Source: Candidatus Berkelbacteria bacterium
Lineage (GTDB): Bacteria; Patescibacteriota; UBA1384; UBA12157; JAENIV01
Length of the DNA: 30,353 nt
Assembly: GCA_016844295.1 (NCBI GenBank)
Contig: JAENIV010000008.1
Coordinates: 1-30,353 of the forward strand
Direction of reading: 5' to 3'
Positions 4,478-18,635 of this stretch are shown piece after piece; position 1 is the first letter of the stretch; each line of letters starts with the position of its first letter. Below the pieces are notes generated by a model. That model was not told the DNA's origin, did not search any database, and saw nothing but the letters and a program-made list of their open reading frames with translations. Both the position numbers and the translations under genes were made by a program.

Positions 4478-6058
4478 ATGATTAAATATAAAATTAAAAA
4501 GTTAGTTCAAAAATCAATAGTATCAGTTTACTCAAAGGCAGGGGATATTACGTTTTCTGTTGAACCGGCCGATAAGAAATTTGGCGATTATTCATCGAAT
4601 GTTGCCATGGTTTTGGCAAAGCAGGTGGGCGAGAAGCCGGAAAATGTTGCTGGTAAATTTGTCAAAGAATTATCAAAAGACGAAATGTTTGAGAGGGTCG
4701 AAGTCGCAAAACCGGGATTTATAAATTTTAAAATCGCACTCCCCTATCTTCAAAACGAAATTTTAGAAATTAATCAAGCCGGTGAAGCCTATGGCAATAG
4801 TGATTTAGGCAAAGACCTAAAAATCAACGTCGAATTTATCTCCGCCAACCCGACTGGTCCATTAACTTTGGGCAATGGCCGCGGGGGGTATGCGGGTGAT
4901 TGTTTGGCTAACGTTTTAGAATCTTTCGGAGCCCAAGTAGAGCGCGAGTACTATATTAATGATCGCGGCGCACAAGTTATTGCTTTGGGTCATTCAGTTT
5001 TAAAAGACTCCGAAAAAGTTTACAAAGGTATTCATATCGATCAAATAGCATCTAAAATAACTTCCAAAAAACCCGAAGAAGCAGGTAGCCAAGCCGTTGC
5101 GATATTGATGGAGGAATCAATTAAGAAAACAATTGCACAAATGGGGATCAAATTTGATAGATGGTTTCGGGAAACAGATCTACATAAAGGGCCAGTTGAA
5201 GAAATCTTGGGTAAGTTAAAGTCGGATAAATTGACATATAAAAGCGACGGGGCTCTTTGGCTTAAAACAACTGATTTCGGCGATGACAAAGATAGAGTAT
5301 TGATAACCAAAGAAGGGGAATATACATATTTTGCTTCGGACATTGCTTATCACTGGGATAAAATCCGTCGGGGTTATAACATCCTGATTGATTTTTGGGG
5401 GGCAGATCACCATGGTTATATTGGCCGTATGCTTTCAGCCGTACAAATTCTTCAAAAAGAAGAAAATTGGTCAGGTGAATTAAAAATAATAATCGCTCAA
5501 CTCGTACGCTTAATCAGTAAGGGCCAAGAAGTCAAAATGTCAAAGCGTGAGGGAAATTTTGTAACCCTCGATGAACTCATAAGCGAAGTTGGTAATGATG
5601 TTACGAGGTTTTTCTTTATCGAGCGAGCAATGAATACGCATATGGATTTTGATTTGGATCTCGCCAAAGAGCATTCGGAAAAAAACCCTGTTTATTATGT
5701 GCAATATGCATACGCTCGGATACATAGTATCCTCGCGAAATCCACAACTAATCACTCAATCACAACTAATCACTCAATCGCTGCTCTTATCAAAGAACCG
5801 GCAGAACTCTCGCTTATCAAAGAACTAATAAAACTACCAGATATAATTATCGAAGCTGCCGAGGACTACCAGGTCCAAAGGTTGCCTTTTTATGCTATCG
5901 AACTAGCCAATAAATTCCATAATTTCTATGAAAATTGCCAGGTAATATCGGAAGATAGAAATCTAACTTTGGCCCGAATCGATCTTATTAAAGCAACTCA
6001 AATAGTACTCAAAAAAACTTTTGATTTAATGGGAATCTCCGCCCCGGAAAAAATGTAA
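4478..6058 (+). CDS. argS: Arginyl-tRNA synthetase
   Basis: VEFISANPTGPLTLGNGRG, YFASDIAYH, WGADHHGY, KMSKREG, NPVYYVQYAYARIHSI, C-terminal GISAPEKM. Confidence 0.97.
   Translation: MIKYKIKKLVQKSIVSVYSKAGDITFSVEPADKKFGDYSSNVAMVLAKQVGEKPENVAGKFVKELSKDEMFERVEVAKPGFINFKIALPYLQNEILEINQAGEAYGNSDLGKDLKINVEFISANPTGPLTLGNGRGGYAGDCLANVLESFGAQVEREYYINDRGAQVIALGHSVLKDSEKVYKGIHIDQIASKITSKKPEEAGSQAVAILMEESIKKTIAQMGIKFDRWFRETDLHKGPVEEILGKLKSDKLTYKSDGALWLKTTDFGDDKDRVLITKEGEYTYFASDIAYHWDKIRRGYNILIDFWGADHHGYIGRMLSAVQILQKEENWSGELKIIIAQLVRLISKGQEVKMSKREGNFVTLDELISEVGNDVTRFFFIERAMNTHMDFDLDLAKEHSEKNPVYYVQYAYARIHSILAKSTTNHSITTNHSIAALIKEPAELSLIKELIKLPDIIIEAAEDYQVQRLPFYAIELANKFHNFYENCQVISEDRNLTLARIDLIKATQIVLKKTFDLMGISAPEKM
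5743..5778 (+). repeat. Perfect in-frame 18-bp tandem duplication (CACAACTAATCACTCAAT x2) inside argS
   Basis: Read directly; encodes TTNHSI-TTNHSI. Confidence 0.9.
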
Positions 6059-10170: not shown

Positions 10171-10323
10171 TCGGGATGGCGAGACTCGAACTCGCGACCT
10201 TCCGCCCAAATTCGGGGCGACTGGATTCGAACCAGCGGTCTCCAGACCCCCAGCCTGGCGCTTTACCAACTAAGCTACGCCCCGAATTTTTGGCGGACAC
10301 ACTACCAACTGTGCTACATCCCG
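10171..10323 (-). ncRNA. Outer tRNA-Pro-like shell whose anticodon loop is replaced by a complete tRNA-Pro(GGG). 5' half 10323-10293, 3' half 10205-10171
   Basis: Acceptor CGGGATG/CATCCCG + A73; D-arm GCAC-AGTTGGTA-GTGT; anticodon stem TCCGC/GCGGA; variable loop AGGTC; T-arm GCGAG-TTCGAGT-CTCGC. Confidence 0.85.
10212..10284 (-). tRNA. tRNA-Pro(GGG), nested; CCA not encoded
   Basis: 73-nt cloverleaf: CGGGGCG/CGCCCCG, GCTT-AGTTGGTA-AAGC, CCAGG-CTGGGGG-TCTGG, GCTGG-TTCGAAT-CCAGT, A73. Confidence 0.95.
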
Positions 10324-13656: not shown

Positions 13657-13746
13657 CTACTGCAGGCCAAAGACCATGGTATATGCAGGGTAAATCTTTC
13701 TTCGCTTAATCCCTATCCACTGCCGAAGGTAAGGCACGCTGATTGA
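13656..13746 (+). repeat. Diverged copy D of the dispersed intergenic element
   Basis: Shares CCATGGTAT, GGTAAA-x-xTTTCTTCGCTT-x-ATCC and ATCCAC...CCGAAGGT with copies A-C. The 3' block is degenerate. Confidence 0.55.
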
Positions 13747-13762
13747 GCTCCATTTTTTAATC

Positions 13763-13791
13763 TTGAGAAAAATAGATAAAAATGTTAAAAT
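13763..13791 (+). promoter_or_regulatory. Putative sigma70 promoter for the Tyr-shell/tRNA-Thr/rpmG transcript
   Basis: TTGAGA (13763-13768), 17-nt spacer, TAAAAT (13786-13791) with TGn extension. Confidence 0.7.
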
Positions 13792-13799
13792 AAATTCAT

Positions 13800-13999
13800 G
13801 CCGGGTTAGCCCCGGTTTGATAATCAAACTAGGTAAACTCCGCAGTCTGCCGAGATAGCGAAGTGGCCAAACGCATCTGACTGTAAATCAGACGCCCTTG
13901 TGGCTTCGGGGGTTCGAATCCCTCTCTCGGCACCAATCCTGGCGGAGTTCATCCCGGAACTAAGTTGAGGGAGGAGTGCAAATCTCTCGCTCGGCACCA
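13800..13999 (+). ncRNA. Outer tRNA-Tyr-like shell enclosing tRNA-Tyr(GTA)
   Basis: Acceptor GCCGGGT/GCTCGGC + A + CCA. Clamp helix AACTCCGC (13836-13843)/GCGGAGTT (13942-13949). Variable-arm hairpin GTTC-ATCCCG-GAAC. Bulged T-arm GAGGAG-TGCAAAT-CTCTC. D region replaced by palindrome GGTTTGAT-A-ATCAAACT. Confidence 0.7.
13849..13935 (+). tRNA. tRNA-Tyr(GTA), nested; CCA encoded
   Basis: GCCGAGA/TCTCGGC, TCTGA-CTGTAAA-TCAGA, long variable arm, GGGGG-TTCGAAT-CCCTC, A-CCA. Confidence 0.96.
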
Positions 14000-14006
14000 C
14001 CAGAGT

Positions 14007-14081
14007 GCCCAGGTAGCTCAGTGGTAGAGCAATTCCATGGTAAGGAATAGGCCAGGGGTTCAAATCCCCTCCTGGGCTCCA
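14007..14081 (+). tRNA. tRNA-Thr(GGT); ordinary, no shell
   Basis: GCCCAGG/CCTGGGC, GCTC-AGTGGTA-GAGC, ATTCC-ATGGTAA-GGAAT, AGGGG-TTCAAAT-CCCCT, T-CCA. Confidence 0.96.
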
Positions 14082-14103
14082 TATTATTAAAAAGAAAGGT
14101 AAA

Positions 14104-14286
14104 ATGGCAAAAGCAAAGGCAGTGTTAATACATCTAGAGTGTACTGAATGTAAAAGTAAAAACTATACTACGGCTAAAAACCCCACAGAAAACAAAGAAA
14201 AACTTAGATTAAATAAGTTTTGTAAAAAATGCCGCAAACATACTCCTCACAAAGAGGTAAAAATTTCTAAAGCCAAGAAGAAATAA
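14104..14286 (+). CDS. rpmG: 50S ribosomal protein bL33, zinc-binding (C+) form
   Basis: LECTECKSKNYTTAKN...KLRLNKFCKKCRKHTPHKE. Confidence 0.96.
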   Translation: MAKAKAVLIHLECTECKSKNYTTAKNPTENKEKLRLNKFCKKCRKHTPHKEVKISKAKKK

Positions 14287-14299
14287 CCAAACAAATTAT

Positions 14300-14328
14300 T
14301 ATACACGCATCGAATGGGCAGATATAAT
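14300..14328 (+). promoter_or_regulatory. Putative sigma70 promoter for the Trp shell/tRNA-Trp
   Basis: TATACA (14300-14305), 17-nt spacer, TATAAT (14323-14328). Confidence 0.5.
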
Positions 14329-14352
14329 CATGAATGCTGATAATATTTTCTA

Positions 14353-14569
14353 GGGGGTGTGCGAATGCTGGCAACCTTCAATGGGTGCTGGCAAAGCCAG
14401 TACAACGGTCTGGATGCCGGTCTTAACTCATCCTGCTGGGAGCTTAGTTAAGTGGTATAACGGAGGTCTCCAAAACCTCGGTCGGGGGTTCGATTCCCTC
14501 AGCTCCTGCCAAAATGAGTTAAGACGCGCAAAACCGTAGACCGGGGTTCGATTCCCTGCACCCCTGCCA
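14353..14569 (+). ncRNA. Outer tRNA-Trp-like shell enclosing tRNA-Trp(CCA)
   Basis: Acceptor GGGGGTG/CACCCCT + G + CCA. Anticodon stem ACGGT (14405-14409)/ACCGT (14533-14537). T-arm CGGGG-TTCGATT-CCCTG. D-like hairpin GTGCTGGC-AAA-GCCAGTAC. Perfect 12-bp inverted repeat 14420-14431/14514-14525 around the inner tRNA. Confidence 0.8.
14438..14511 (+). tRNA. tRNA-Trp(CCA), nested; CCA end encoded
   Basis: GGGAGCT/AGCTCCT, GTTA-AGTGGTA-TAAC, GAGGT-CTCCAAA-ACCTC, GGGGG-TTCGATT-CCCTC, G-CCA. Confidence 0.96.
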
Positions 14570-18194: not shown

Positions 18195-18635
18195 TGTCAT
18201 TCTGAGGCGTAGCCGAAGAATCTCCCATGAATATGGGTTGGTATGAGTAAAAAATATTACGTTTATATCGCTACGAATAAATCCAACACTCTTTATACTG
18301 GTGTAACTAACGATATACAAAGAAGAATGTATGAACATAAATTTAAGTTTATCAAGGGATTTACAGAAAAATATAACATTAATAAATTAGTATATTTTCA
18401 GGAATTTAATAATCCGAATGAAGCAATTACAGTTGAAAAGAAGATAAAAGGTTGGACAAGAGCAAAAAAGATAAACTTAATAAAAAGTTTGAATCCCACC
18501 TTTAAGGACTTACTTGAGTCATGTTGAACAATCGTGTAATTCTGGAGCATTGTCATGTTGAGCGAAGCGAAACATCTCTGGCGAATGCCAGTTCTCAAAC
18601 AAGTTGAGAGATCCTTCGTTTCACTCAGGATGACA
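18195..18635 (+). mobile_element. GIY-YIG nuclease cassette bounded by REP-like repeats (three copies)
   Basis: TGTCATTCTGAGGCGTAGCCGAAGAATCTC (18195-18224) and TGTCATGTTGAGCGAAGCGAAACATCTC (18551-18578) in forward orientation; inverted copy GAGATCCTTCGTTTCACTCAGGATGACA (18608-18635). Confidence 0.7.
18243..18527 (+). CDS. Small GIY-YIG nuclease family protein
   Basis: YYVYI...LYTGVTNDIQRRMYEHK...FTEKYNINKLVYFQEF...AITVEKKIKGWTRAKKINLI. Confidence 0.92.
   Translation: MSKKYYVYIATNKSNTLYTGVTNDIQRRMYEHKFKFIKGFTEKYNINKLVYFQEFNNPNEAITVEKKIKGWTRAKKINLIKSLNPTFKDLLESC

Follow-up and report, generated by a model that had tools for sequence, protein, structure and literature searches.

The 30,353-nt stretch of Candidatus Berkelbacteria bacterium DNA analysed here (contig JAENIV010000008.1 of assembly GCA_016844295.1, referred to below as the window) contains, at positions 13800–13999, a complete tRNA-Tyr gene nested within the split remains of an older tRNA-Tyr gene. 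The old gene was split by an insert that carries a spare tRNA, the flanking remains are homologous to a tRNA-Tyr gene that is still intact in relatives, similar nests recur in many tRNA genes and genomes, and nuclease open reading frames (ORFs) of two homing-endonuclease folds are tightly associated with such nests. The best explanation, to which we assign a probability of roughly 0.72, is that homing-nuclease-associated cassettes break tRNA genes and bring a spare copy with them, and that the Tyr locus is a nuclease-less and partly decayed case. The finding would belong to the realm of homing-type selfish DNA. The genome to which the window belongs (G000; 876 kb, 39.7% G+C, 92% complete, 44 tRNA genes by ARAGORN) contains the window as contig C23. 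It is compared below with the one-contig complete genome G003, its nearest relative by a 740-amino-acid (aa) protein (62% identity), with G006 and G008, which represent two sister genera of the same family, and with other relatives; the syntenic Tyr-Thr-rpmG-Trp gene cluster was collected from 40 of these.

ARAGORN and Rfam agree on one tRNA-Tyr(GTA) at 13849–13935 (63.5 bits, with an encoded CCA), which is the sole tRNA-Tyr of the 876-kb assembly. The sequences on either side of it, termed the shell, resemble the two ends of another tRNA-Tyr. GCCGGGT (13800–13806) and GCTCGGC (13989–13995) form seven of seven acceptor pairs, including two G.U pairs, and are followed by A-CCA (13996–13999). 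A T-arm-like element, GGAG-TGCAAAT-CTCT, lies at 13973–13987, a palindrome occupies the D-arm position, and an 8-bp clamp embraces the inner gene, with AACTCCGC being the exact complement of GCGGAGTT (Table 1). A sequence-only reading of this locus had proposed the nesting, the paired acceptor, the clamp, the variant TGCAAAT T-loop in the 3' half and the replacement of the D-arm by a palindrome, and each of these is present as described. Two independent metagenome runs yielded unitigs (X1, 13850–14079; X2, 13924–14349) that are identical to the window over the junction between the inner gene and the 3' shell, and a contig of a related strain from a further run (X4, 13772–13883) spans the 5' shell into the inner tRNA. 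An assembly artefact is unlikely because these sequences cover the junctions, and the nested arrangement is real DNA.

Relatives reveal what the shell was. G006 and G008 have an intact, un-nested tRNA-Tyr at the syntenic site, with the acceptor GCCGGGT/ACCCGGC, the T-arm GGGAG-TGCAAAT-CTCTC and CCA. The 3' end of the shell (13973–13999) matches the live tRNA-Tyr of G008 at 25 of 27 positions (E 2e-4 in a genome-wide search) and the first 12 bases match at 11, so the likeness of the flanks to tRNA-Tyr is not due to chance. Matching 5' and 3' halves are present, as the sequence-only reading had held, rather than a duplicated 3' end alone. CCA, the variant T-loop and the acceptor pairing are inherited, because the intact gene of G006 and G008 has the same sequence. 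In G003, GCCGGGTTGGCC is followed by a GC-rich palindrome (CCTCGCC-AA-GGCGGGG) at the matching position and by GGTAAACTCCG, after which come an orthologous inner tRNA-Tyr and the part of the old gene that extends from the anticodon stem to ACCCGGC-A. This part matches the live G008 gene at 48 of 49 positions, but its anticodon loop is interrupted by a 37-nt hairpin and its CCA has been lost. The inner tRNA-Tyr has the canonical TTCGAAT loop and is ~82% identical to the old type, and the inner tRNAs of G000 and G003 differ from each other by ~15%. Two paired changes in its variable arm among contigs of relatives (13895 C>G with 13903 G>C; 13897 C>T with 13900 G>A) indicate selection on the fold of the inner tRNA. 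By these alignments, the shell is the original tRNA-Tyr gene of the family, which was split when DNA carrying a tRNA-Tyr of another type was inserted into it.

Replacement has gone further in G005, where 39 of 40 bases of the window's inner Tyr type persist as a 5' remnant that ends just after the anticodon loop and is followed by a 219-aa ORF and then by an intact tRNA-Tyr of a third type. At the syntenic site, G006 and G008 thus have the intact gene, G000 and G003 the nested form and G005 a further replacement, and three tRNA-Tyr types occur within one genus. The value of the locus lies in this three-step replacement series. The Tyr locus combines an intact tRNA flanked by 5' and 3' remnants of the same amino acid and strand, a palindrome (13814–13830, with a GC-rich equivalent in G003) that interrupts the displaced copy, and presence or absence of the insert among close relatives at the syntenic site.

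Smaller features are consistent with this history. The motif TTGAGA-17-TAAAAT, a candidate ancestral promoter, is common to G000 and G003, where it precedes the shell, and to G006, where it precedes the intact gene. The X4 strain has the ancestral G at 13808, and GG at 13830–13831 gives it a longer palindrome, CCCCGGTTTGAT-G-ATCAAACGGGG; similar palindromes occur in other tRNA remnants. Within the DNA that came with the insert, GGTAAACT (13832–13839) resembles the −10 boxes of G000 tRNA genes, many of which have a GGTAAAAT-type box 8–15 nt upstream, and it is a putative promoter element of the inner tRNA. Behind the inner gene, TGGCGGAGT (13940–13948) matches ancestral positions 8–16, and the anticodon and variable arms of the old gene are gone.

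Table 1. Features of the nested tRNA-Tyr locus in the window, and ORFs found beside tRNA-Tyr in relatives
Feature	Position	Strand	Basis and remarks
Candidate ancestral promoter	13763–13791	+	TTGAGA (13763–13768), 17-nt spacer, TAAAAT (13786–13791) after TG; ends 8 nt before shell base 1
5' remnant of ancestral tRNA-Tyr, positions 1–12 (acceptor 5' strand, U8, start of D-stem)	13800–13811	+	11/12 to intact G008 and G006 genes
Palindromic hairpin in place of D-arm	13812–13833	+	Core GGTTTGA-TAA-TCAAACT, 13814–13830
Spacer that came with the insert	13834–13848	+	GGTAAACTCCG kept before inner tRNA in G003; AACTCCGC (13836–13843) is the clamp 5' strand
Inner working tRNA-Tyr(GUA) with encoded CCA, the inserted replacement copy	13849–13935	+	ARAGORN, Rfam; paired changes in relatives
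Rearranged middle of old gene	13936–13972	+	Alignment to intact G008 gene; GCGGAGTT (13942–13949) is the clamp 3' strand; not covered at 90% likeness in X4
3' remnant of old gene: T-arm with TGCAAAT loop, acceptor GCTCGGC, A73, CCA	13973–13999	+	25/27 to G008 tRNA-Tyr
tRNA-Thr(GGU), next gene of conserved Tyr-Thr-rpmG-Trp cluster	14007–14081	+	ARAGORN, Rfam, synteny
Helix-turn-helix (HTH) + LAGLIDADG-fold ORFs, 196–219 aa	L046:421–1011, L008:900–1559, L005:1724–2380	-	Beside tRNA-Tyr in three genera

The sequence-only reading went beyond the nesting and took the shell for a maintained class-II-like tRNA that might be aminoacylated, a claim that comparison does not support. The shell has the 7-bp acceptor, A73 and CCA of a class II tRNA, and its D-arm, its anticodon arm with GUA and its long variable arm are replaced or deleted in the alignment to the intact G008 gene. 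ARAGORN found no tRNA in ~1100 trimmed joinings of the Tyr flanks, although seven other shells of the genome did score; it did not report the shells with introns allowed, and Rfam called only the inner tRNA at the locus. The proposed long variable arm fared in part: the hairpin GTTC-ATCCCG-GAAC exists, but it is not aligned with the ancestral variable arm (CGCCTTTATGGCTTCG), and the counterpart of its region is the ancestral D-arm (TGGCGGAGT, 9/9) or else a second decayed copy of the 3' end.

It is also conceivable that the shell has been kept as a useful RNA, with its halves and the clamp acting as a scaffold that guides or protects processing of the inner pre-tRNA, or as a second tRNA-like RNA; we regard this as rather unlikely. 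The clamp is predicted to form with a probability of 0.97–0.999 in a thermodynamic model, clamps around inner tRNAs recur elsewhere, the old promoter is conserved before the shell, which is probably transcribed, and the T-arm, the 3' acceptor strand and CCA are conserved at 25 of 27 positions in G000, with the remnant of G003 conserved at 48 of 49. Against these points, the same model gives the acceptor helix a probability of only ~0.13, and the fold proposed by the sequence-only reading lies 13.4 kcal/mol above the minimum free energy. Five sequences (G000, G003, G006, G008 and strain X4), a sample of low power, contain no compensatory change in the shell pairing; the only differences are two single acceptor transitions, both to G.U, an outcome for which we estimate a chance of about one in four if evolution is neutral and biased towards transitions. 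G003 lacks the 3' partner of the clamp, though the upstream strand is conserved there; overlap with the −10-like GGTAAACT box could explain that conservation. The downstream strand of the clamp in G000 aligns with the D-arm of the old gene itself (TGGCGGAGT, 9/9). Sister genera have no shell, one related contig has a Tyr-Thr gap of 3 bases, and shells at other loci vary from near-perfect to one-sided stumps, as decay predicts. A search for RNA runs that contain the locus returned none. A functional shell fails as an explanation because the 5' and 3' segments do not covary. The evidence speaks against maintenance of the shell as a structure, and marks it as the fossil of a replaced gene, not a second tRNA.

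Nests of this kind are widespread. A census in which tRNA queries were searched against the tRNA-masked genomes of G000 and G003 gave 17 remnant clusters in each. For nearly all remnants, an intact tRNA with the same amino-acid identity is found 1–320 nt away on the same strand, 5' parts being upstream of it and 3' parts downstream. At least 11 of the 44 tRNA genes of G000 are affected according to the census, and ~17 by eye. At the Tyr locus, the census bore out the expectation of the sequence-only reading that automated tools would detect the 3' fragment only. A screen of the flanks of all 44 tRNAs found strong complementarity between upstream and downstream sequences, together with tRNA-like halves, at Trp, Arg(gcg), Pro(cgg), Ala(cgc), Pro(ggg), Met, Phe and others. 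Among loci of relatives, remnant and intact gene have the same amino acid in 16 cases and different ones in 7, most of the latter being nearest-gene artefacts. The Arg(gcg) shell is near-perfect, with its own GCG anticodon arm intact and the insert in its D-stem. Shell preservation ranges from this state to one-sided stumps, a spread that fits decay after insertion.

One-sided remnants are themselves common (His, Val gac, Leu caa and Asp in G000; Ile and Ser in G003), and they could suggest that the 5' and 3' copies at the Tyr locus are two unrelated local duplications or integrase scars that arose separately, by slippage or site-specific integration, with no nuclease cassette. T(A/G)GC at both junctions (13807–13810 and 13940–13943) resembles a short target duplication, and the genome has one tyrosine integrase gene. 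This alternative is nonetheless unlikely: the remnants are of the old TGCAAAT type, from which the intact gene differs by ~18%, and so are not fresh copies; the well-preserved Pro, Arg gcg and Trp nests are clean insertions at one point; and integrase scars leave a 3' part only, while the sole integrase lies on another contig (C36). An attachment (att) scar was rejected at the Tyr locus, since the 5' half is present too and the integrase is not near. The sequence-only reading had itself named an ordinary duplicated 3' end, left as an att-like scar, as the alternative to its proposal; this is not quite right, as the 5' half is present, although the lack of covariation between 5' and 3' segments that it had named as refuting its proposal was found. 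Tandem self-duplication was rejected because the Tyr remnant and the inner copy are of different types. In a young-looking Glu nest of G003, the tRNA parts are identical and the spacer is only loosely like the upstream flank.

Several other nests and remnants lie in the window or elsewhere in these genomes. At 10171–10323 (−) of the window, a second, nearly perfect tRNA-Pro body (acceptor CGGGATG/CATCCCG, D- and T-arms intact) harbours tRNA-Pro(GGG) (10211–10285) in its anticodon loop, with only ~11 additional bases next to the inner gene and no nuclease ORF; this is the cleanest and probably the youngest nest of the window. At 14353–14569, tRNA-Trp (14438–14511) is framed by a perfect 12-bp inverted repeat (GTCTTAACTCAT/ATGAGTTAAGAC) in a Trp-like shell whose 3' part matches tRNA-Trp of relatives (E 1e-5); G003 has no shell at Trp. 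A decayed tRNA-Thr(UGU) remnant occupies 13657–13765, and its terminal sequence, AAGGCA..GAGCTCCATTT, corresponds in alignment to the 3' end of the Thr(tgt) shell of G003. No tRNA-Thr(UGU) was found in the G000 assembly; G003 and G006 have one at this site. On contig C21 of G000 (5463–5757, L104) there is a three-layer nest in which a 19-nt Arg 5' remnant is followed by a CCCCGT...ACGGGG hairpin and then by a second Arg shell. The hairpin CCTGCCCGCC...GGCAGGCGGG interrupts the D-stem of this shell and carries the intact tRNA-Arg(GCG) in its loop. The same hairpin occurs without cargo in the D-loop of a Val shell (C18, 25566–25611). In G003 (C1, 370509–370941), adjacent genes for Arg(tct) and Lys(ctt), both intact, lie between an Arg 5' remnant and a Lys 3' remnant, which looks as if a two-gene piece had replaced the sequence from mid-Arg to mid-Lys. 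Dispersed repeats unrelated to tRNAs also occur in G000: a GGTATTACGCTTGAAAATAA-type repeat has at least 10 copies, and AAGGTAAGGCACGC has 6, one of them in the window (~13722–13735).

Small nuclease ORFs accompany tRNA genes and nests far more often than expected. G000 has 14 small GIY-YIG ORFs of 85–118 aa, ~10 of which are within 150 nt of a tRNA compared to ~0.3 expected, and three of them lie between a remnant and the intact gene (Ala on C85, Asp on C77 and Val on C42). The C85 example is an 89-aa ORF (Pfam E 6e-17) between an Ala 5' remnant and the intact Ala(tgc); old tRNA sequence, repeated directly over 29 nt, borders the whole insert and includes a palindrome that replaces the anticodon arm. 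Four of the five GIY-YIG ORFs of G003 are beside tRNAs. Across the class, small GIY-YIG ORFs are found in 38 of 41 genomes, and at 18 of 30 sampled GIY-YIG loci a tRNA is no more than 300 nt away (~5% expected). Relatives have full nests as well, in the order Asp remnant, Asp, GIY-YIG ORF, Asp remnant in G030 and Trp 5' remnant, GIY-YIG ORF, Trp in G027.

A second protein family is found at tRNA-Tyr. Homologues of the 219-aa ORF that separates the Tyr remnant from the new Tyr gene in G005 directly follow tRNA-Tyr in G006 and G001. The family has at least 552 proteins in candidate phyla radiation (CPR) bacteria, with no Pfam match, an N-terminal HTH and the motif GLGLGxxWGEG. Searches with Pfam, NCBIfam, PDB sequences and Foldseek against PDB gave the 196–219-aa ORF no name. 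An exhaustive structural search with a family model (m34080199f049; AlphaFold, predicted local distance difference test (pLDDT) 89.6) found a LAGLIDADG fold, with Z scores of 10.6 to an intein homing endonuclease and 7.5 to I-DmoI, the next match being at 6.8. Other mobile-element genes of G000 comprise three reverse-transcriptase loci on C50, C18 and C41 (one intact, of 360 aa, and two split) and four Y1-transposase-like ORFs (226–255 aa) on C20, C78, C66 and C42; no link of either to the nests turned up, and no dedicated follow-up of them was made.

Interrupted tRNA genes can also be read as introns. The insert would then be an intron, archaeal-type or other, of the old tRNA that happens to hold a tRNA, and the shell would be spliced to a second tRNA-Tyr. 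True introns are possible in tRNA genes here: the sole tRNA-Asn of G000 (C75, 749–1343, L102) is split in its anticodon loop by ~550 nt, which contain an ORF with an HNH-like motif, CANCHREIH (by eye), and a weak, sub-gathering group I match (RF00028, 26.6 bits). The complementary sequences at the joint of the Tyr nest are, in addition, reminiscent of split-tRNA leaders. An intron is nevertheless very improbable at the Tyr locus, where Rfam finds no intron match, the shell has no anticodon arm and ARAGORN reports no tRNA after any trimming. The complete G003 genome, for its part, has 46 intact tRNAs, a full set that does not draw on the shells. No match to the splicing endonuclease EndA (PF01974) or the ligase RtcB (PF01139) was obtained in the 92%-complete G000, while positive controls were detected, and archaeal-type splicing was rejected on this ground. 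Rfam searches with gathering and E-value thresholds of the window, G003 and ten nested loci gave tRNAs and the one weak group I match in tRNA-Asn only. The tRNA-Asn of G005 is split by ~255 nt, and behind it come a GIY-YIG ORF and another 3' remnant (L130).

For a nuclease-associated cassette with a spare tRNA, the course of events at the Tyr locus would be as follows. A short DNA piece inserted into the D-arm region of the original tRNA-Tyr, consisting of the palindromic hairpin, ~15 bases with the −10-like box and a complete tRNA-Tyr of a different type, and the new copy took over decoding. The split old gene turned into a 49-nt leader and a 64-nt trailer, which are probably still transcribed from the old promoter and trimmed by normal tRNA processing. 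More generally, as a recurrent process in this group of ultra-small, CPR-type bacteria, a nuclease would cut an intact target tRNA gene and repair would install the cassette; insertion would destroy the target site and thus protect it. Introns and inteins home in this manner too, but they rely on splicing where the cassette offers a replacement gene. Since the spare has the amino-acid identity of the broken gene, it would remove the cost of the break. The nuclease gene may later be lost, leaving bare nests, or may act from elsewhere, and the inverted repeats that hug inner tRNAs may be nuclease recognition hairpins, as in the Ssn family considered below. Cutting of tRNA genes, homing and the order of loss are putative steps in this scheme.

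Several observations weigh against homing-nuclease-associated cassettes. No nuclease ORF lies within 13800–13999 or adjoins the Tyr insert. The palindromes do not form a single enriched repeat family, and the clamp and palindrome motifs are low-copy in the genome. The 8-bp clamp, of which we estimate ~0.03 to be expected by chance, links inserted DNA to the old D-arm in a way that the cassette does not explain, and inverted repeats hugging inner tRNAs recur at other loci. Classical homing gives replacement and does not account for the clean nesting of a whole tRNA inside its homologue, and we infer the cleavage and mobility of these nucleases rather than observe them. The 48/49 preservation of the G003 3' remnant compared to ~15% divergence of the inner tRNAs fits either a recent or separate invasion or some constraint; G000 and G003 may have been invaded once or separately, and the pristine G003 remnant favours the latter, or recent invasion, or such a constraint. 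The GIY-YIG ORF nearest to the Tyr insert is at 18252–18476 (+) (Pfam E 8.6e-16), where it has no adjoining tRNA or detected remnant. Enrichment of GC-rich hairpins near tRNAs is only mild (6 vs 1.9 and 4 vs 2.4), and CCCCG-led inverted repeats show no enrichment. A single family of miniature inverted-repeat transposable elements was rejected, as the motifs are low-copy and the hairpins only mildly enriched. A motif scan of genome contigs for GGTAAACTCCG-gap-GCCGAG gave only chance matches, in unrelated phyla.

More tentatively, the inverted-repeat-framed tRNA units could be non-autonomous members of an undescribed selfish class in ultra-small bacteria. Paralogous single-domain GIY-YIG (Ssn-like) or LAGLIDADG nucleases would cut tRNA genes and a cassette with a nuclease-resistant spare would heal the break, giving serial in-place replacement (at the Tyr locus, TGCAAAT to GCCGAG to the third type), with the shell halves serving as homology arms for the next invasion. 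This extension is doubtful at present, and we would give it considerably less weight than the cassette itself.

Parts of this picture are known from other systems. T4-like phages have free-standing homing endonucleases that engage in 'intronless homing', and SegB, a GIY-YIG protein, is encoded in a phage tRNA gene cluster (PMC2988022; PMC13096335). The likeness to SegB lies in a nuclease gene among tRNA genes and in the inferred mode of spread, in which an allele that lacks the nuclease is cut and receives a copy of the nuclease gene along with adjacent tRNA DNA. Seg proteins have DNA-binding domains and leave no nested dead tRNA. The nests described here differ in their single-domain (85–118 aa) or LAGLIDADG-fold nucleases, in the split target with a full spare inside and, at the Tyr locus, in having no nuclease gene. 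Single-domain GIY-YIG nucleases of the Ssn family cut single-stranded DNA at hairpin repeats that flank their own genes; this repeat-gene-repeat layout has been likened to a mobile element, and the hairpins tolerate sequence placed in their loops (Chenal et al. 2025, PMC11893778). Ssn proteins resemble the present case in being minimal (~90–100 aa) and associated with short palindromes, and differ in that tRNA is never mentioned in that paper and that each genome has one high-copy repeat family (PMC11893778), whereas the palindromes here vary between loci.

Att scars in tRNA genes share with the nests a targeted tRNA gene, a partial copy downstream and preserved function, but they have no 5' half, the element supplies a 3' end and not a whole gene, and no integrase is nearby here. 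Archaeal split or intron-containing tRNAs, which depend on bulge-helix-bulge splicing, similarly have halves parted by foreign sequence and complementary stretches at the joint; G000, unlike them, is bacterial without EndA or RtcB matches, and no anticodon arm is left to be restored in its shell. In fungal mitochondria, for example in Allomyces atp6, mobile endonuclease ORFs bring a replacement gene end and displace the resident end. The invader there likewise supplies its own version of the disrupted part, and the old version persists as a pseudogene fragment, but protein genes are concerned and only the 3' end is supplied, whereas here a whole tRNA is supplied and both old halves remain. A whole spare tRNA nested in a dead homologue is described for none of these nearest known systems, and a literature search on nested or interrupted tRNA genes in CPR bacteria and on GIY-YIG nucleases with tRNA found no published description.

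If homing-nuclease-associated cassettes are the correct explanation, tRNA genes of minimal genomes would be contested sites that are repeatedly broken and replaced by selfish DNA, rather than quiet housekeeping loci. This would account for the strong tRNA sequence differences between close genera and for tRNA annotations that are littered with fragments in such genomes. It would also suggest a possible role for the large family of tiny GIY-YIG proteins and for the unannotated LAGLIDADG-fold family of more than 550 members. A replacement gene would then be a third route by which a homing element becomes harmless to its host, besides RNA splicing in introns and protein splicing in inteins.

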